From the NCBI GenBank assembly GCA_000092065.1, contig CP000582.1: DNA of 64,000 nt; one strand, 5' to 3'. Every line of letters begins with the position of its first letter. Position 1 is the stretch's first letter. The notes beneath the pieces are model-generated. The model ran no database searches, had not been told where the DNA came from, and saw only the letters and a program-made list of their open reading frames with translations. The translations under genes were made by a program, and so were the position numbers. Positions 16,865-31,877 of the stretch are shown one piece after another. The DNA comes from Ostreococcus lucimarinus (Eukaryota).

Positions 16865-18550
16865 CTAAAACCACGCCGCGCCGCTGTGCGCGTCGTAAAA
16901 CGCGCGAGCCGTCGTGATCTCCGATGGCGTCGCGAGAAGCGTCGACGCGCCGGCTTCGACCACTCTAGCCACCACGTAATCTCCCGCTTTAATGTCCACC
17001 TCCTTTCCGCTAGAATTACTAAACGCGCGCTTACCTTGTATGACGACGCGCTTGCCGGTGTCCGATCGCCCGCTCATCTGCGCCTCGGGATCCTTTTTGC
17101 TCGCGCCTTCGACGAGCACCAAGTGCGTCCGACCGACTTCCGCGGCGTTCGCCTCGAGCGCGCGACGACGGAACGTCGCGATAACTTCCGCAAGCCTCCG
17201 TTTTTTCACATGTTCTGGAACGTCGTCTTCCAAATTTCTGGCCGCGTGCGTCTTCTCGCGCAATGAATAGTGAAACATGAACGCCTGCTCATAGCGAACG
17301 TCTTCGAGCAGCGAGAGCGTCTCCGCGTGCTCGTCCTCCGTTTCACCGCAAAAGCCGCTGATGAAATCGCTCGAGAGCGCGACACCCGGAATCATCTCGC
17401 GCGCGCGCTTGATTAAATCCAAGTACACCTCTCGCGTGTATCCGCGTCGCATGCGCTCCAAAGTCGAGGTCGATCCGCTCTGCGCGGGCATGTGCAATTG
17501 CTTGCAAACGTTTGGCGTCTGAGCGATGACGCGTAATAAATCGTCTGGGAAATCTTTCGGATGCGGCGACGTGAACCGCACGCGTACCTCCTGGTCCAAG
17601 CCCGCGACGGCGGAGATGAGGTCCGCGAACGTGCGCGCGCCCTCGCGCTTTGGCTTGTACACCGATTTGAATCCTTTCGCGTACGCCGCGAACGGGTCGT
17701 CGTCCGCCGACGTCGTCGCCTTCATCGGCGCGTCCGCGTATGAGTTCACGTTTTGACCCAGCAAAGTGATTTCCTTCACGCCCTCCGCGATCAGCCCGCG
17801 CGCTTCGTCGACGACGGATTCGAAAGGTCGACTTCGCTCCCGTCCTCGCGTAAACGGCACCACGCAAAACGCGCACATGTTATCGCATCCTCGCATCACC
17901 GAAACGTACGCCATCGGCGACCCCACGTCTCTCCGCACCGGTCGCACGTCCGCGTACGTCTCATCCAACGACAACAGCACGTTCATCCGGTGTTCCTCGC
18001 TCAAATCGCTCAACCGTCGAGTCGAATTTTCCAACAGCCTCGGCACGTCCCTGTACGCATCCGGCCCGCACACCAAATCCGCCAAATCCTCCGTCTCCAG
18101 TAATTTCGCCTTCAATCGCTCCGCCATGCACCCCAAGACGCCGACCGTCGTCAACGCATGTCCCGCGTCTCGCTTCAGCGCCTTCAACTGCCGCAATCGC
18201 GTCCACACGCGCGACTCCGCGTTGTCGCGCACCGCGCACGTGTTCACCAGCGCCGCCGTCGCCTCGCGCAGGTCCTCCGTCGTCGCCACGCCGTGCGCTC
18301 GCAGAACGCTCCGCACGACGTCCGAGTCCGAGACGTTCATCTGGCATCCGTACGTCTCGATGTACACGCGCGTCGGCGCGCGCGTCGTCGTCGCCGTCTT
18401 CGCCGCCGCCGAGTCGCGCGCCGAATGCGTCGCGCGCGCCGCCTCCACGACGCGCGCGCCGACCGCCGTCCCGCCGAATCCGTCGCGCGCGCGCGTCGCG
18501 GACGCCGCCGCGCGCCGCAGACGCATCGCCGCGTCGCGCGCGCGCGTCAT
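16865..18550 (-). CDS. tRNA methylthiotransferase, MiaB / CDK5RAP1-like radical SAM enzyme
   Basis: MTTase N-terminal domain VYIETYGCQMNVSDSDVV; radical SAM CDNMCAFC; C-terminal TRAM-like region. ORF start 18649 is GTG; first ATG at 18550 (MTRARDAAMRL), presequence-like N-terminus. Confidence 0.75.
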   Translation of the reverse strand: MTRARDAAMRLRRAAASATRARDGFGGTAVGARVVEAARATHSARDSAAAKTATTTRAPTRVYIETYGCQMNVSDSDVVRSVLRAHGVATTEDLREATAALVNTCAVRDNAESRVWTRLRQLKALKRDAGHALTTVGVLGCMAERLKAKLLETEDLADLVCGPDAYRDVPRLLENSTRRLSDLSEEHRMNVLLSLDETYADVRPVRRDVGSPMAYVSVMRGCDNMCAFCVVPFTRGRERSRPFESVVDEARGLIAEGVKEITLLGQNVNSYADAPMKATTSADDDPFAAYAKGFKSVYKPKREGARTFADLISAVAGLDQEVRVRFTSPHPKDFPDDLLRVIAQTPNVCKQLHMPAQSGSTSTLERMRRGYTREVYLDLIKRAREMIPGVALSSDFISGFCGETEDEHAETLSLLEDVRYEQAFMFHYSLREKTHAARNLEDDVPEHVKKRRLAEVIATFRRRALEANAAEVGRTHLVLVEGASKKDPEAQMSGRSDTGKRVVIQGKRAFSNSSGKEVDIKAGDYVVARVVEAGASTLLATPSEITTARAFYDAHSGAAWF

Positions 18551-24551: not shown

Positions 24552-26948
24552 TCATCTAAATCTACGCACGAGCGCTAAACTCAACGCGCGCGCGCAAAAC
24601 GTTTCGGCGTCGACGGGCGAATCCTCGGCGAGCGCTTGCTCGAACAATGGTGCGCTCGGCGACGACATGTTCGGTACGGTGTCGACATCGATCACGATCA
24701 TCTCACCGTTGTCTAAATTTGCAAACGCATTGACTTTCGCGTACCCTTCGACTTGTAACGCGTCGCCCACGCGTCGAGCGCGTTCGCGCACGAGCCCGAC
24801 GACGCGTTCGGACAAGACTAATTTCGATTTGTCGATCGCCGATCGACCGTCGCGCGCGCGCACGCTCGGCGTGAACGCGTGTAATTTCCCGGGTTTGTCT
24901 CCGAAGACGACGATCTCGATCTCGATCCATCGTTTCGATCCGTCGTCTGGGTCGAGGACGATTTCGCCGTCGCCGCGAATGGAAACCTCCGCGGCGTCGA
25001 AGAATGGCTCGAACACGTACCCGCGCGCGGCGAGATTCGTGCCCTCGGGAAATTGCCCGCTCGCCATCGCCGCCGCGATGGACTCCGCGTACGCGAGCAT
25101 GTCGTTGTCGTTCATCAATCGCCGCACGCCACCGAAGGACGACTTGGTCACCGGTTTCACGATTACGCCGCGCGCCGTCGCGCTCGCGCCGCCGAGCGAC
25201 CCGACGACGTCCAACCAAAGACGCTTGGCCGATTCCGCGCGCGCGCGACCGCCCCACCCGCTCTCTTCCGTCGCCTTACTCACTAACGTCGCCGTCGGGA
25301 CGAATCGCTTATTCAAACACCCCACCCCTACGTCTCGCATGTTCCCCAACGCCTTGCTCGTCGCCGCCTTGTCCGCGCACACGCGACTAGCGAGCGGACC
25401 GCATCCGGTGTACGCCGCGCCCGAGGACACGCACAGTTGTTGTAAACTCCCATCGGGTTCACCCACGACGCCGGCGTTGAACACGATGGCGCCCTCGGAG
25501 GCGGCGAGCGAGAGCAACGCGCCCAAACGCGAGACGCGCGGCGTCGCGTCGAACGCGAGCGCCGCGTCGTCGCGCGGCGGCGAAATCCATAAATACTTTT
25601 CTAATTCCGCGCGCACGCGCCGAGCGGTGGCGAAGCGCCCGAGGTCAGGCATGCGCGGCGGAACGTCCGCGGACGACCACTGCGCGGGATTCACCGCGAA
25701 CGCGTACGGTAGCCGCCACGCCGGGGCGTCGACGAGCCCGTTTGAGTTCGCCGCGGGCGGCATCAAGAGCACGGGCGTGACGTCAATCGTCGGGATGTTT
25801 CGAAGCGTCAAGTATAAGTTACGCCCGGCGTAGCACGAACTCAGGCGATCGCCGCCCGACGCGGCGCCGCCGAAGAGAACGTACACGCGCATCGACGCCG
25901 AACTCGTCGAAGCGGGCGCGGGCGCGGGCGCGGCGACGATTTTCCTCGTCGACGCCTCGCGGCTCGTCGCGTTCTTCACCAAGTGTTCGATCACGGACTC
26001 CATGGACAGACCCACGGCCGCGGCGTGCACGAACATCTTCGACCACGCCCTCGCGGTTCCCGAGACCGGCGAATCGGAAAGCTCGACGCGCACGAAGGAG
26101 GTCGCCGGCGCCGAGGTCGAAGTCGCCGCCTCGTCTTCGTCTTCGTCTTCGTCTTCGTCGGCGTCGTCTTCATCTTCCTCGACGCCGTCGTACGCCACCG
26201 CGCCTTCATCACTCGCCGCGCAACTCACCAACCGCCCGCCTCGAACGTCGAAATCGCGCGACCCCGCGGCGTCCGCGAACGCGGCTTCCGCGCGCGCGCG
26301 AATCGCCGCCGCCACGAGACGCGGGTACCGCGTCGTCGATTCCACGTCCAACGCCACGCACGGCCGCTTCCGCGACCGCGTCGTCGACAGCGTCGTGACG
26401 TAAAAATCAAACCCCGCCGCGCCCTCGTCGCCGTCGCCGTCGTCGAAATCGCGCGAAGTCGCCCTCGCCGCCGCCCGCGCGCGTCCCGCGCGCGCGTCCC
26501 CCGTCGTCGCCAGCGCGCAATCCGCCCACGCCCCGTCGTCGCCGCGCGCGACGACGACCGCCTCGCACCGCGCCCCGACGCGCGCGTTCACGCACGCCGC
26601 CATCGTCGTCGCGTGCGCGAGCGCGTCCGTCCCCGCGCGCGAATCGCCGTCGCTCGGAAACACCGCGATCGTTTTCCGCCCGTCCGACGTCGTCGCCGCG
26701 CACCGCGCGCGTCGTCGCGCGAACGCGCGCGGTGCGCGCGAATCGCCGTCGCTCGGAAACACCGCGATCGTTTTCCGCCCGTCCGACGTCGTCGCCGCGC
26801 ACCGCGCGCGTCGTCGCGCGCCGCGCGTTCGTCCGCTTTGGTGCGGCGCCCGCGCCGGCGCGCGCGCGAGCCGCATCGACGCGCGCGACGCGATGTGCGT
26901 CGTCGTCGAAAAAGTGCACTTTTTCGCCCGTCCCGAATGGATTCGCAT
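24552..26948 (-). CDS. DDL: D-alanine--D-alanine ligase-like ATP-grasp enzyme with long low-complexity N-terminal region
   Basis: C-terminal 380 aa collinear with Ddl: MRVYVLFGGAAS (Ddl N-terminus), GEPDGSLQQLCVSSGAAYTGCGPLASRVCADKAATSKAL (cf. GEDGTLQGMLEL...GSGVLASALSMDK), ATP-grasp core. ATG at 26948. The N-terminal 400 aa is acidic/low complexity (poly-DE) and includes a 99-bp tandem duplication; the true N-terminus or upstream introns are unresolved. Confidence 0.6.
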   Translation of the reverse strand: MRIHSGRAKKCTFSTTTHIASRASMRLARAPARAPHQSGRTRGARRRARCAATTSDGRKTIAVFPSDGDSRAPRAFARRRARCAATTSDGRKTIAVFPSDGDSRAGTDALAHATTMAACVNARVGARCEAVVVARGDDGAWADCALATTGDARAGRARAAARATSRDFDDGDGDEGAAGFDFYVTTLSTTRSRKRPCVALDVESTTRYPRLVAAAIRARAEAAFADAAGSRDFDVRGGRLVSCAASDEGAVAYDGVEEDEDDADEDEDEDEDEAATSTSAPATSFVRVELSDSPVSGTARAWSKMFVHAAAVGLSMESVIEHLVKNATSREASTRKIVAAPAPAPASTSSASMRVYVLFGGAASGGDRLSSCYAGRNLYLTLRNIPTIDVTPVLLMPPAANSNGLVDAPAWRLPYAFAVNPAQWSSADVPPRMPDLGRFATARRVRAELEKYLWISPPRDDAALAFDATPRVSRLGALLSLAASEGAIVFNAGVVGEPDGSLQQLCVSSGAAYTGCGPLASRVCADKAATSKALGNMRDVGVGCLNKRFVPTATLVSKATEESGWGGRARAESAKRLWLDVVGSLGGASATARGVIVKPVTKSSFGGVRRLMNDNDMLAYAESIAAAMASGQFPEGTNLAARGYVFEPFFDAAEVSIRGDGEIVLDPDDGSKRWIEIEIVVFGDKPGKLHAFTPSVRARDGRSAIDKSKLVLSERVVGLVRERARRVGDALQVEGYAKVNAFANLDNGEMIVIDVDTVPNMSSPSAPLFEQALAEDSPVDAETFCARALSLALVRRFR
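26641..26838. repeat. 99-bp tandem duplication (2 copies) inside the Ddl N-terminal coding region, in frame (33 aa)
   Basis: gaatcgccgtcgctcggaaacaccgcgatcgttttccgcccgtccgacgtcgtcgccgcgcaccgcgcgcgtcgtcgcgc repeated at 26641 and 26740. Confidence 0.85.
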
Positions 26949-27984
26949 TCACAGACGCGCGCGCAGTCGAGATTCCGGATTCGGCGCGCGCGCGAACGAA
27001 CGCGACGGAGGCGTGCGGCGTGAGCGTGAGCGTGAGCGGGACCGTGAGCGTGAGCGGGACGTGATGAATGAAGGGCGCGTGTGGTGCGCCTGCAGAAATT
27101 CGTGACGACGCGTGCGCGACCGTCACGGGGTATGGAATTTAGTTTTCAACCAGCAATATTCCAAGCTCAGTTAAGACTTCACAGCTTTGGATATAACCCC
27201 ATGCGCAAAGATGCGACGCGGGACGCGCGGGACGCGCGGGTGATGGGACGCGTGGACGCGATGGCGATTTCGAGGTTATGGGTCAGGGCGTGCGATGGGC
27301 GTCGCCGCGCGCGGCGCGCGGTCGCGCGCGACGAAAGACGCGTCGGTCGGCGCGAGACGACGACGACGTCGTGCGTCGCGCGTCGTCGTCGTCGTCGTCT
27401 CGCGTCGTCGTCGTCGTCGTCGCGCGCGTCGTCGTCGCGGGAAAACGCGGCGACCGACCGAACGACACACTCGCGCGCGGCGCCGACGCGCGCGACGAAG
27501 GTGGTGATTTTTTACCACGGGTAGAATAAATTGGTTGAATCTCCTTGAATGGAATATAAAAAGGGTTGTATGTGGTAAAAGGCAACAGACAAGCACCTCG
27601 TTCTTATACTCCGGAGCGTTCGAGGGACGACGCCGCGCGCGGCGATCGGGTGCGCGCGCGACGGGGCCGGGGCGATTTCGAGGTTACGGGCGCGAAACAC
27701 GGCGCGCGCGACGGCGCGCCTCTCGTGCGCCGACCGATGCGTCGCGCGCGCGCGAACGGTCGCGCGCGGTGCGTCGACGCGCGACGCGCGCGCGACGCGA
27801 CGCGCGCGCGCGATACCGTCGAGCGCGCGTCGATGGATCGCGCGCGCCGTCGACGTCGACGCGCGCGCGCGTCGACGACGCGCGCGCGGCGCGTCGGCGT
27901 CGGCGTCGGCGCGACCCGTAACCCGCAAACGCGCGCGGCGACGTCGCGAATGCGTCTGGGGGGGGCGCGCGCGACTTCGCGCGC

Positions 27985-28150
27985 ATACTTACCTGCGCCG
28001 AACTCTATCTGATCATGAAGGGGTAGAGTTGCGCGAATCCGTGGCGCCTTGCACTTCGCGCACACGTATTCGCGTCGTTCGTCGCCTAACGGGGCGAACG
28101 GGGCGACAATTTATTCCAGGGTGAGACCGGCGTTCGCGCTACTCGCCATC
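27985..28150 (+). ncRNA. U1: U1 spliceosomal snRNA gene, about 166 nt
   Basis: 5' end ATACTTACCTG (11/11 match to the U1 5'-splice-site-recognition sequence). Stem-loop I CCGAACTCTATC-TGATCATGAAGG-GGTAGAGTTG with the U1-70K-type loop GAUCAUGAAGG. Stem-loop II loop CTTGCAC (U1A site AUUGCAC). Sm-like AATTTATTCC. 3'-terminal hairpin GGTGAG-ACCGGCGTTCGCGCTA-CTCGCC containing the conserved GCGUUCGCGC loop. Boundaries are plus or minus a few nt. Confidence 0.65.
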
Positions 28151-28229
28151 GCGAACGTCGTCGGCGCCGCGCGCGAGTGTGATTGTACGGGCGTGTGCGT
28201 GATTACAGATGATTACAGACGCGTCGCGC

Positions 28230-28303
28230 CTATCGTCGAGGCGCCGGGATTCTCGCGCCGCCGCGCGCGCGACCGCCGCGCGCGCGACCGCCGCGACCTC
28301 CAT

Positions 28304-28335
<32 letters not shown>

Positions 28336-31300
28336 AAGCCTGCGAAACTGCGAGCGAAACTCGAGGACTCGATGAACGCGGCGTCGGCGTCGCTCAGCAC
28401 GCGCGCGATGGCGTCCACGGCGCCTCGCATATCCGCCGGTAGCGCGTCTTTCGGTCGCTCGACGCGCATGGCGAACGCTTTGTGCAAACGTAAGCGCAAT
28501 ACCGTGATCTGCGCCACCGCGCGCAAGGGCACGCGAAATCTCAACCAATTGTCCACGACCAACAACGCCGACGGCGGACCGTCTCTCGCGCGCGCCTCGC
28601 CGGTTTCGGGATCGATTTGCGGCACGTCTGGTTTCACCGTGAGCGTGGAGCACACGAACACGATCGCCGCGGCGGCGACCAACGTGCACTCGCGCACTTG
28701 CACCGCGTGAGGGCCTCGAATGAGTTCGTCGAAGCACGCCAAGGTGGCAATTTTTTCACCCGATTCGTTGAGCTCGCCGAGCGCGCTCACGTCGAGTTTG
28801 CCGTTGACGCTAAACGCGTGCACGCGCACGCGCTCGCCGCGAAGCGTTGCCAACGTCGGCGCTTTGCACTTTGGTAAAAATCGTCCCACCAAAGGGTACA
28901 TGCCCACGGCGAGCACCGCGCGCACAAGCGCGCCGGATGACGAGTTTGCGCTCGCGCTTCGCAAATCTGAAATGATGCCGCGCTGAATCAACGCCGTGAT
29001 TAATTGCTGTCGCATGCCCTTGATCATGTGCAGCGTCGACGGCGACAAAGAATTCGCGTTCAAAAAGTACCTTTCATTTTGACGCCCATCGCGCTGAACT
29101 TGCTCCCACGCCATGTACGCCTTGGTCACCGCCAAGTGATCGCTCCCGCCGCCGGCTTCGTTGGAAAACGCCGCGCGACTGGCGTCGCCCGATTTTCGAC
29201 CGTCGGCGGAGATGATGAAGGGCGGACGATACGCCGCAGCGCACGCGACGGTGAGAATCGGATCGAGAACGCCAAACAGAGCGGCGTACAAGATCATCTT
29301 CCCCACGCGCGGGTGCAACGGAAGCTCGCCGAGATGGCGGCCGAGTCGCGTGAGGCGCTCCTCCTCCGTCAAAGCGCCGATGTCCTTGAGCAATTGCACC
29401 GCATTGTCCGTCGCTTGCGCCACAGGGGGCTCGACCGCGCGCGCGAGAAACCCAGCCGTGCTTCCCGGCCCATCGTCCACGACGCCCGCGCCGCTTTCGG
29501 CCAACACGCGCACCTGCAAGCACAGCTCCTCGAGCGGCGACCGCTGCATCTCGGGCAACTGGTACTGCGCGAACGAGTCGTACCGTGAGGTGGAGTACAC
29601 GCGATAGCACTCGCCGGGACGCACGCGACCGGCGCGACCGCGTCGCTGTTTCGCACTCGCTTGCGAGATCCAAGCCGCCTGGAGCGTAGAGACCGCAGAG
29701 TACGCGTCGTAACTCTTTTCCTTCAACCGCCCGCTGTCGATGACGAAGACGACGTCGTCAATCGTCACCGCCGTCTCCGCGATGTTGGTGGAGAGGACGA
29801 TTTTGCGCAACCCTTTAGGTGGACGTTGGAAGACTTTTCGTTGATCCGCCGGGGCGACCATGGAGTGCAAAGGTAGGACGCTCGCCGAGTGACAGACGTT
29901 GTAATCCGCCGTCAACGAGTCGCGAAGTTTGGAGATTTCGTCCCAGCCGGGCAAAAAGACTAAAATCGCGCCCTCGGATCCTTCGTCGATCGCGCGCTCT
30001 TTCATGATCCAAACGATCAAATTGTGGATTAAGTCCACGTCCACCTCGTCTGGATCCACGGAGAGCTGGTAATCGCTCAATAGAAGCGCCGACTGCTCGT
30101 GACTTCCCGCGTCTTCGTTTTCGTCGTCCACGCTTCGCAACGCGTCCGCGAGCTCGACGTGTCCAAACTTATCCGCCCAATCCGCGGCGTTGCTCCCGTC
30201 GGTGCTTCGCATCGCGGGCGACGCTCCTAAACCTAAAAGCTGCGACACTTCCATCTGTCTTCCCTTACCCGCCGCCGCCATGAGCGCGGTGGCGCCCGTG
30301 GAGTGCGCGACGTTTACGTGCGACAACCCGCTCGCAGAATCTGTCTCGCGCGCGCACTGCATGAGCCAATCGAACGACTCGTCGGTGTCCTCTAAAAATG
30401 CTCGCATGATTGCCTCGCGCATGACGTCCACGCTCGCGCCCGAAGTGGGTGCGCGCACTCTCGGTTCGCCGCCGCCGCCTCCGCTCGCCTTCTTCGACGT
30501 GTGATGCACGCCGCCCCATCCGATCATGGGCAAGATATCTTCCAGGTGATACTCATTCACCGGATGCGTATAACCTGGCACTGAAATCACCGGACACCCA
30601 CCAAAGTATTCGCTAAACAAATCTTCGCGCATCGTCGCCGACATCAGCACGAGCTTTAGGTGCGGATGCTTCGGAATCACGCCCTTCAAAATGATGGTTA
30701 GGAAATCCGCAAACAAATCTCGCTCGTGCAGCTCGTCGATGATGATATGCGTCAATGACTCGCACAGCTTATCCGACGCCTCGCTCGTGAGTCGTCGCAA
30801 CAGCACGCCGGACGTGCAAAACAACAACGAACAATCCGCCGAGACCCGGCTTTCCAATCGAATCTGGTAACCGACCGTGCTCTGCCCGATGCTCTCCCCG
30901 CGCTCGTTCGCGATGCGCTCGGAAACCGTCATCGCGCTAATCCTTCGCGGTTGCGTGCACACGATCGACGCCCCGCGCCCGTTCGCCCACGCATCGTCCA
31001 AGACGTACTGCGGCACCTGCGTCGTCTTCCCGCAACCCGTCGACCCGGCGACGAGCACGACTTGATTCGCCCGTACCGCGTTCAATATCGCATCCTTAAA
31101 CTCCCGCACCGGTAACTGTTCGCGTTTCGTCTGTATCGCCGCCAACGACGCATCGCTCGCGATCTTCGCCCGCAAGCGCGCCGCTCGCGCGTTCGTCGCC
31201 TCTTCGCCCTCGCGTCGACCTCGCATCTCCAACGCCGAGTTCCCATACCCTCGCTTCTTCCCCTTCCCTCCCGCGTCCGCCACCGCCGTTTCCCACGCCG

Positions 31301-31727
31301 CGTCCATCGTTCCGCTCACGCTCGCTCGGATCTCTTCCTCGCTCTGCGGCGCTCGCTCAAAGTATTGTTCCATCGCCGCCGTCGCCCGGCGTCCGACGCC
31401 TAAATCAAACAAATCCTCCGCATCCTCCGGCACGTACGCGTCCGCCTTCGTCACGTGCACCCTGCGCTCCGCGCCCTTCCCGTACGACTTGCTCTTCAGC
31501 CCGATCTTCTTGCACTCGGCGTGGACGACGGCGCGGAAGTGATTATCGACGTCGGACGGGAAGATGAGTTCCGTCTCGCTCGCGTCGCGTCGAAACGCGT
31601 CCAGGGCGTCGGTGATGTGAATGCGCGCGAGCTCGCCCACGGGGCGCACGAACGTTCGCGAGGCGCCTCGACCGGCGGCGCCGGGAGGGGCGCGACCGCG
31701 GCCTCGACCGCGGCCTCGACCGGACAT
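28230..31727 (-). CDS. DEAH-box RNA helicase with N-terminal R3H domain and ankyrin-repeat insertion (YTHDC2-like architecture, no YTH domain), RGG-rich C-terminus
   Basis: R3H-like SYGKGAERRVHVTK; GSTGCGKTTQVPQYVLDD (motif I), IIDELHERD (motif II DExH), SATMRE, FLPGWDEI, TNIAETAVTIDDVVFVIDSG, QRRGRAGRVRPGECYRVYS; ankyrin-like insert (LMAAAGKGRQMEVSQLLGLGASPAMRSTDGSNAADWADKFGHVELADAL) between the RecA domains; HA2/OB region; C-terminal GGGRGGGGRGDGGRGG. First ATG after the microsatellite at 31727 (MSGRGRGRG); alternative ATG at 31865 would translate the microsatellite. Confidence 0.75.
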
Positions 31728-31810
31728 TCGATGCGATGTCACGGCGAGGCGCAATGTGAGGTTTGTCGAATCTGTCTGAACGCGTCGGTTTCTTGCGTTG
31801 CAATGGCGAC

Positions 31811-31862
31811 TATATCGTATATCGTGTATATCGTGTATCGTGTATATCGTGTATATCGTGTG
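31811..31862. repeat. Imperfect (GTATATCGT)n microsatellite in the helicase 5' flank
   Basis: tatatcgtatatcgtgtatatcgtgtatcgtgtatatcgtgtatatcgtgtg. Confidence 0.8.
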
Positions 31863-31877
31863 CATCGCGCGTTCACG

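Follow-up and report, generated by a model that had tools for sequence, protein, structure and literature searches.

A predicted U1 snRNA gene in a U4-U5-U1 cluster of Ostreococcus lucimarinus, with an Sm site that lacks the consensus G

In a 64,000-nucleotide stretch of Ostreococcus lucimarinus DNA (the 64-kb window), a gap between two long ORFs holds the motifs of a U1 snRNA gene, as an earlier sequence-only reading had proposed. That proposal raises two questions: whether a working U1 gene lies here, and whether its Sm site, described as non-canonical, marks a departure from ordinary snRNP assembly. We find that the segment is very probably a functional U1 snRNA gene and that it is part of a U4-U5-U1 cluster. 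The call is borne out by a covariance-model match above the Rfam threshold, by a predicted fold with covariation, and by an expressed orthologue in O. tauri. The gene is of an already known kind, because the O. tauri orthologue has been detected experimentally and published work has already located and used snRNA genes of the O. lucimarinus genome; it is ordinary save that the edge of the Sm site is slightly altered throughout the genus. The oddities that we describe in the Sm site, a downstream element and the order of the cluster are modest.

Identity and fold of the U1 gene

We scanned the whole 64-kb window with Rfam 15 at gathering thresholds and obtained three matches above threshold, to U1, U4 and U5. 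The U1 match, a cmsearch with RF00003 of the kind that had been proposed as a check, scored 86.2 bits against a threshold of 69.5 (E = 5.6e-20) and spans the full-length model (positions 1-166 of 166). The earlier estimate of about 166 nt holds insofar as the length fits U1, but the gene itself is 163 nt long. Each listed motif lies where it had been placed: ATACTTACCTG at 27985-27995, GATCATGAAGG at 28011-28021, TTGCAC at 28049-28054, AATTTATTCC at 28108-28117 and GCGTTCGCGC at 28130-28139. The coordinates of the gene, its parts and its neighbours are given in Table 1.

Table 1. Features of the snRNA cluster and its counterparts in relatives (USE, upstream element; positions are those of the 64-kb window unless a locus is named)
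Feature	Position	Strand	Remarks
U1 snRNA gene	27985-28147	+	163 nt; RF00003; 0/163 variable columns, five haplotypes
U1 5' end AUACUUACCUG, 5' splice site recognition	27985-27995	+	exact consensus match
Helix H	27995-27999 with 28102-28107	+	closes four-way junction; covarying pairs 3/5
Stem-loop I, loop GAUCAUGAAG, U1-70K-type	28001-28030	+	minimum-energy fold; double-sided changes at 5/10 pairs
Stem-loop II, loop CUUGCACUUCG, U1A-type	28031-28075	+	minimum-energy fold; double-sided changes at 6/16 pairs
Stem-loop III	28076-28100	+	minimum-energy fold; covarying pairs 4/10
Sm nonamer AAUUUAUUC	28108-28116	+	heptad AAUUUAU canonical; positions 8-9 UC, not GR; single-stranded in fold
3' stem-loop IV containing GCGUUCGCGC	28120-28147	+	minimum-energy fold; 100% of cells paired, sequence nearly invariant
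USE CCCGTAACC of U1	27915-27923	+	-70 to -62; 0 columns variable
Downstream element CGTCGGCGCCGCGCGCGAGTGTG of U1	28159-28181	+	starts 12 nt past U1 3' end; 0/23 variable
U5 snRNA gene	27501-27618	-	RF00020, 48.7 bits vs 40; 1/118 columns variable
U5 Sm site CCAAUUUAUUCUACC	near 27530-27516 (region entry 27591-27583)	-	without consensus G at position 8
USE block of U5, CCCGTAACCTCGAAATCGCC	27671-27690	-	core 27682-27690, -64 to -72; 0/20 variable
Same 23-nt downstream element, of U5	27466-27488	-	starts 12 nt past U5 3' end
U4 snRNA gene	27076-27212	-	RF00015, 88.3 bits vs 46; 2/141 columns variable
USE block of U4, CCCATAACCTCGAAATCGCC	27263-27282	-	core 27274-27282, -62 to -70; 0/20 variable
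snRNA clusters of relatives	L129 9625-10386; L130 7390-8348; L062 365-2049; L074 1109-1966; L003 37-547		

A match of this kind might arise if GC-rich intergenic DNA happened to resemble the short motifs of U1, and the flanks of the gene are indeed highly repetitive, CG-rich DNA that gave rise to spurious sub-threshold matches to miRNA models. We give this explanation no credence, given the E value across the full-length model, the composition of the U1 region (59% GC with AU-rich loops, different from the flanks), and the covariation and cross-species conservation described below.

Folded singly, the 163-nt RNA reaches a minimum energy of -68.9 kcal/mol (z = -3.2) and adopts the canonical U1 architecture. 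The predicted order is a free 5' end, a four-way junction formed by helix H and stem-loops I-III, a single-stranded Sm stretch, and stem-loop IV. We compared this fold with related U1 sequences from three sources: a pattern scan of metagenomes, the O. tauri U1 (PMC7671301 Supplementary File 2), and contigs that carry orthologues of the neighbouring helicase, among them L129 and L130, at 85% and 79% identity, respectively. The scan pattern, which combined the upstream element (USE) with the U1 5' end, matched at least 120 loci, most of them by chance; real U1 genes number at least about a dozen among the matches listed. When the single-sequence fold was placed on an alignment of five U1s (O. 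lucimarinus, O. tauri, L129, L130 and L062), double-sided changes were found at 19 of the 51 pairs, with 90.9% of cells paired. None of 500 column shuffles attained this number, and slid controls gave 3-7 such pairs. Compensatory changes were also seen at 20 of 36 RNAalifold pairs in an eight-sequence alignment; stem-loop II was misdrawn in that alignment, owing to misplacement of the distant sequences by MAFFT, and covariation was remapped via the single-sequence fold on the closer five-sequence alignment. Since the four-way junction is both predicted from the single sequence and backed by covariation, the objection foreseen against the U1 call, a fold without support, fails.

The individual parts of the RNA are those of a U1. 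Its 5' end, AUACUUACCUG, matches the consensus ACUUACCUG, complementary to 5' splice sites, and 8 relatives show no variation at positions 2-11. The loop of stem-loop I, GAUCAUGAAGG at 28011-28021, matches the U1-70K motif GAUCAYGAAG in both sequence and fold. The loop of stem-loop II, CUUGCAC, agrees with the U1A motif AUUGCAC at 6 of 7 positions, C replacing the first A; of the 8 U1s aligned, 7 have this CUUGCAC and the remaining one, L003, has CUCGCAC. The transcript of about 163 nt is thus predicted to form helix H, stem-loops I-III and stem-loop IV, with the Sm site left single-stranded, and it begins with the canonical sequence that pairs with 5' splice sites. By analogy with U1 biology, the loop of stem-loop I would bind U1-70K, and that of stem-loop II a U1A/U2B''-type protein.

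Two side observations concern these parts. First, at the Rfam-predicted first position (L129 10010), the L129 U1 begins GUACUUACCUG, not AUACUUACCUG. Second, the loop of stem-loop II (28045-28058) reads CCUUGCACUUCG, and an identical loop is found in stem-loop IV of O. tauri U2 (PMC7671301); the observation also takes in L062 1863-2049. The identity of the two loops suggests that one U1A/U2B''-type protein might serve both the U1 and the U2 snRNPs.

The closest described counterpart is the O. tauri orthologue (Ot-U1, PMC7671301), which is likewise 163 nt long and identical at 137 of 165 aligned positions (83%). The 5' end and the loop motifs are common to both RNAs, as is the Sm site ACAAUUUAUUCCAGGG, and their stem-loops IV are nearly identical. 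They differ in stems I-III, where substitutions are compensatory and 6 pairs have changed on both sides; the loop of stem-loop I reads GAUCACGAAGG in the O. tauri RNA but GAUCAUGAAGG in that of O. lucimarinus. The O. tauri RNA has been annotated, has a distinctive read profile, and gives a northern signal at 163 nt strong enough to serve as a size marker (PMC7671301). Similarly, the gene resembles the human and plant U1s of RF00003 in its four-way junction, its U1-70K-type and U1A-type loops, its length, and its 3' hairpin, which has the GCGUUCGCGC tetraloop stem and comes after a single-stranded Sm site. It differs from human U1 in the Sm nonamer (AAUUUAUUC compared with human AAUUUGUGG) and in the first base of the CUUGCAC loop, which is C rather than A.

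Conservation across haplotypes and copies

We aligned the whole intergenic region from five haplotypes: the three snRNA genes are nearly invariant, with 0 of 163 columns variable in U1, 1 of 118 in U5 and 2 of 141 in U4, and the three USE blocks have no variable columns, while the spacers vary at 12-23%. From this alignment, the pattern of variation in the cluster is that of strong purifying selection on working genes, and not of a decaying pseudogene, because the genes and the USE blocks are near-invariant while the spacers vary. In addition, all nine O. lucimarinus-type U1s that we recovered are 100% identical to the copy in the window, and in 8 of the 9 the same helicase gene adjoins U1. 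Two of the nine (L001 and L002) are loci fetched by an exact importin match, and the others (L049 and L123-L128) are seven environmental contigs.

These data bear on the reading of the locus as a U1 pseudogene, in which the degenerate Sm site reflects loss of function and the working gene lies elsewhere. That reading draws on the Sm nonamer, which is without the consensus G, and on the scope of the paralogue search, which covered the 64-kb window, so that a second U1 with a canonical Sm site is conceivable. Yet the U1 has no variable position in the five haplotypes while its flanking spacers vary at 12-23%, its USE is intact and invariant, the nine recovered copies are all identical to it, and the Sm sequence has stayed the same in four lineages even as compensatory changes accumulated in their stems. 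Moreover, O. tauri U1, which is abundant, has the same Sm site and is the sole U1 sequence listed in PMC7671301. We consider a pseudogene highly improbable and already largely refuted, and treat the gene as a working one.

The Sm sites of U1 and U5

The Sm site of U1 had been described as lacking a G after the U-tract and as unusual for that reason. The first part is confirmed in the sequence; the oddity is confined to the last two nucleotides of the nonamer, which are the loosely bound ones. Compared with PuAUUUNUGPu, the heptad fits AAUUUNU and the G at position 8 is absent; stem-loop IV begins 3 nt downstream.

Where the G was lost can be judged from relatives. Four Ostreococcus lineages, O. 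lucimarinus, O. tauri, L129 and L130, all have the same site, AAUUUAUUCC. The U1s of L062, L074, L025, L003 and L031 have AAUUUAUGR, and that of L109 has AAUUUCUGG; the nonamers of distant prasinophyte-like U1s are AAUUUAUGA, AAUUUAUGG or AAUUUCUGG. Because the four Ostreococcus lineages share the G-less site while distant relatives differ, the loss of G from U1 is a derived, genus-level character.

The U5 genes of the Ostreococcus-type lineages are also without the G at position 8. The U5 nonamers are AAUUUAUUC in O. lucimarinus, AAUUUUUCU in O. tauri, AAUUUUUUC in L129, AAUUUUUAC in both L130 and L062, and AAUUUUUGA in L074; positions 8-9 read UC in O. lucimarinus, CU in O. tauri, UC in L129, and AC in L130 and L062. 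The G is kept in the Sm sites of U4 (AAUUUCUG) and U2.

There are precedents for altered Sm cores, namely the variant Sm proteins of trypanosomes and the Lsm10/11 proteins on U7, whose site, AAUUUGUCUAG, has no G. The human U5 site, AAUUUUUUG, likewise has U at position 8, and in yeast genetics the Sm site is tolerant of many substitutions. The U1 site resembles that of U7 in that a pyrimidine replaces G at position 8, but the RNA is unambiguously a U1 and the likeness is limited to two nucleotides.

One could propose that, in Ostreococcus, the U1 and U5 sites without the G direct the formation of a changed Sm core or a changed route of assembly, a proposal that gains from the invariance of AAUUUAUUCC in the four lineages while distant relatives keep AAUUUAUGR, and from the absence of G8 in U5 of both Ostreococcus and L062 while U4 and U2 keep it. 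We consider it quite unlikely. All seven pocket-bound positions fit AAUUUNU, and the U5 nucleotides at positions 8-9 vary from lineage to lineage, a pattern more like relaxed constraint than like a new specificity; the U at position 8 of human U5 and the tolerance of the yeast site point the same way. Structural work places the first seven nucleotides of the site in the pockets of SmF-E-G-D3-B-D1-D2 and finds the last two held less intimately; position 6 already varies between human U1 and U4 (PMC4756616). As the pocket-bound heptad is canonical, we expect ordinary assembly of the Sm core: by analogy, the Sm ring would form on AAUUUAU with one nucleotide per pocket, despite UC in place of G-purine. 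A practical consequence is that Sm-site scanners that demand a terminal G would miss both U1 and U5 in Ostreococcus.

Neighbours, flanking elements and gene order of the cluster

The U1 gene had been thought to sit alone in a 1.3-kb gap; in fact, the Rfam matches show that U4 and U5 share that gap (26949-28229) with it. U5 is divergent from U1, and 366 nt separate their start sites. The mature 3' end of U4 probably lies a few nucleotides beyond the Rfam match, judged from O. tauri U4. On one side, the gap is bounded by a gene at 28230-31865(-) that had been called a DEAH helicase, and we confirm it as a DExH helicase (R3H-DHX36-like) whose domains are R3H, DEAD, Helicase_C and HA2. On the other side lies a 798-aa ORF at 24552-26948(-). 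For its earlier label, 'Ddl', Pfam gives no more than a weak match to Dala_Dala_lig_C (E = 0.056), with a score of 13.4 bits, below the cutoff of 24; the ORF has no Pfam match at E ≤ 1e-3, and the sub-threshold match covers residues 712-765. The N-terminal third of this ORF is of low complexity, and a 63-bp direct duplication is found at 26640-26702 and 26743-26805. A neighbouring 873-aa importin-beta ORF is XP_001416317.1 of O. lucimarinus CCE9901, residue for residue, which identifies the window as nuclear DNA of this picoeukaryotic green alga.

The ORFs that a finder of the bacterial kind called over 27000-28200 were rightly suspected to be spurious, as they overlie the RNA genes (for example, 27604-28065(-), 153 aa, Arg/Ala-rich), and they can be flagged as artefacts atop three RNA genes. 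For similar ORF calls at the snRNA loci of environmental contigs, no Pfam matches are on record. Other scans of the region yielded little: no tRNAs were found in the 64-kb window, and scans for bacterial promoters and terminators, which are irrelevant to a eukaryote, found nothing. A permissive scan of 25000-31000 gave matches to mir-598 and MIR7486 in the spacers, at 24-36 bits against thresholds of 67-69, which we rejected as artefacts of CG-rich palindromic DNA. We also rejected a deletion of U4 in the O. lucimarinus-like contig L123, where about 17000-17170 is a run of N, that is, a scaffold gap. U4 is absent from the O. tauri V2 assembly, too (PMC7671301). With the N run at U4 in L123 and U4 missing from O. 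tauri V2, the CG-rich snRNA cluster seems hard to assemble.

Upstream elements shared among snRNA genes had been suggested as a further check and are present within the 64-kb window. The motif CCCRTAACC occurs exactly 3 times in the 64 kb, compared with 0.25 expected, each time upstream of an snRNA gene (U1, U5 and U4), and a 20-nt block, CCCRTAACCTCGAAATCGCC, is common to the upstream regions of U4 and U5. No TATA box is present near -30 of U1, U5 or U4. TATA-like boxes are present at about -30 in the distant relatives L062 and L074, so it may be only the GC-rich Ostreococcus lineages that have lost TATA. The USE consensus, CCCRTAA, was derived by Fajkus et al. from snRNA genes of the same O. 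lucimarinus assembly (PMC8287931), and TATA-less promoters have been described for green-algal Pol II snRNA genes (PMC8287931). Our cluster agrees with the type-3 plant and green-algal promoters of that study: the USE is the published consensus, lies about 62-72 nt upstream, and is not accompanied by TATA. Land plants differ, having RTCCCACATCG and a TATA box at -30, with a choice of polymerase that depends on spacing (PMC8287931). By analogy, we infer transcription by Pol II via a SNAPc-type factor: as in snRNA biology generally, SNAPc-type factors would bring RNA polymerase II to the gene by binding to the USE.

Downstream of U1 lies a 23-nt element that is an exact inverted copy of the one behind U5. 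In the five haplotypes, the element behind U5 varies at 2 of 23 columns, in one haplotype. Behind U1 and U5 there are related GC-rich...GTGTG motifs in L129 (GGCGCTCCTCGGGGTGGTGTG) and L130 (AGCGCTCCACGGGGTCGTGTG) as well, and in L062 a palindrome, GAGTGTGTACCCCGGTACACACTC, lies between the convergent U5 and U1 genes. The 9-mer core of the element alone is statistically unremarkable in the window, and the conserved tail of U4 is different (GCCTTCnTTCATCAC). The 23-nt element is a candidate 3'-end formation signal (3' box); located 12-34 nt downstream of U1 and present as an exact copy at U5, it might direct 3'-end formation. A wider proposal would combine altered Sm-core or assembly recognition of U1 and U5, with G dropped there and kept in U2 and U4, with a lineage-specific 3'-end signal (GC-rich...GTGTG); we regard that combination as unlikely.

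Beyond annotation hygiene, the significance of the locus is small, as U1 is universal and the O. tauri orthologue is annotated and detected. The compact U4-U5-U1 cluster, its USE and the candidate 3' element would offer a ready-made promoter/terminator cassette for the expression of small RNAs in Ostreococcus.

To compare the order of the genes, we placed the helicase on the plus strand throughout. In O. lucimarinus the order is then helicase, U1(-), U5(+), U4(+), while in L129 and L130 it is helicase, U5(+), U1(-), U4(+); thus, the O. tauri-like contig L130 has helicase-U5-U1-U4 where O. lucimarinus has helicase-U1-U5-U4. The L130 U5 is below the Rfam threshold and was located from its loop motif, GCCTTTTAC. 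The orientation differs as well: U5 and U1 converge in L129, L130 and L062 but diverge in O. lucimarinus. Elsewhere, L062 groups U4, U5, U1 and U2 at a locus that lacks the helicase, L074 has U5, U1 and U2, and L003 has U2 and U1; in L132, no snRNA gene was found within the 1.1 kb available past the helicase. Because clusters recur in relatives in different orders, the clustering of spliceosomal RNA genes is common in these algae and the order is fluid.

A minor feature of the same gap lies directly downstream of U4, at 27019-27059, where a 12-nt unit, CGTGAGCGTGAG (minus strand, CTCACGCTCACG), is repeated in tandem about 3.4 times. At the equivalent position, L130 has CTCACTCACGAC.
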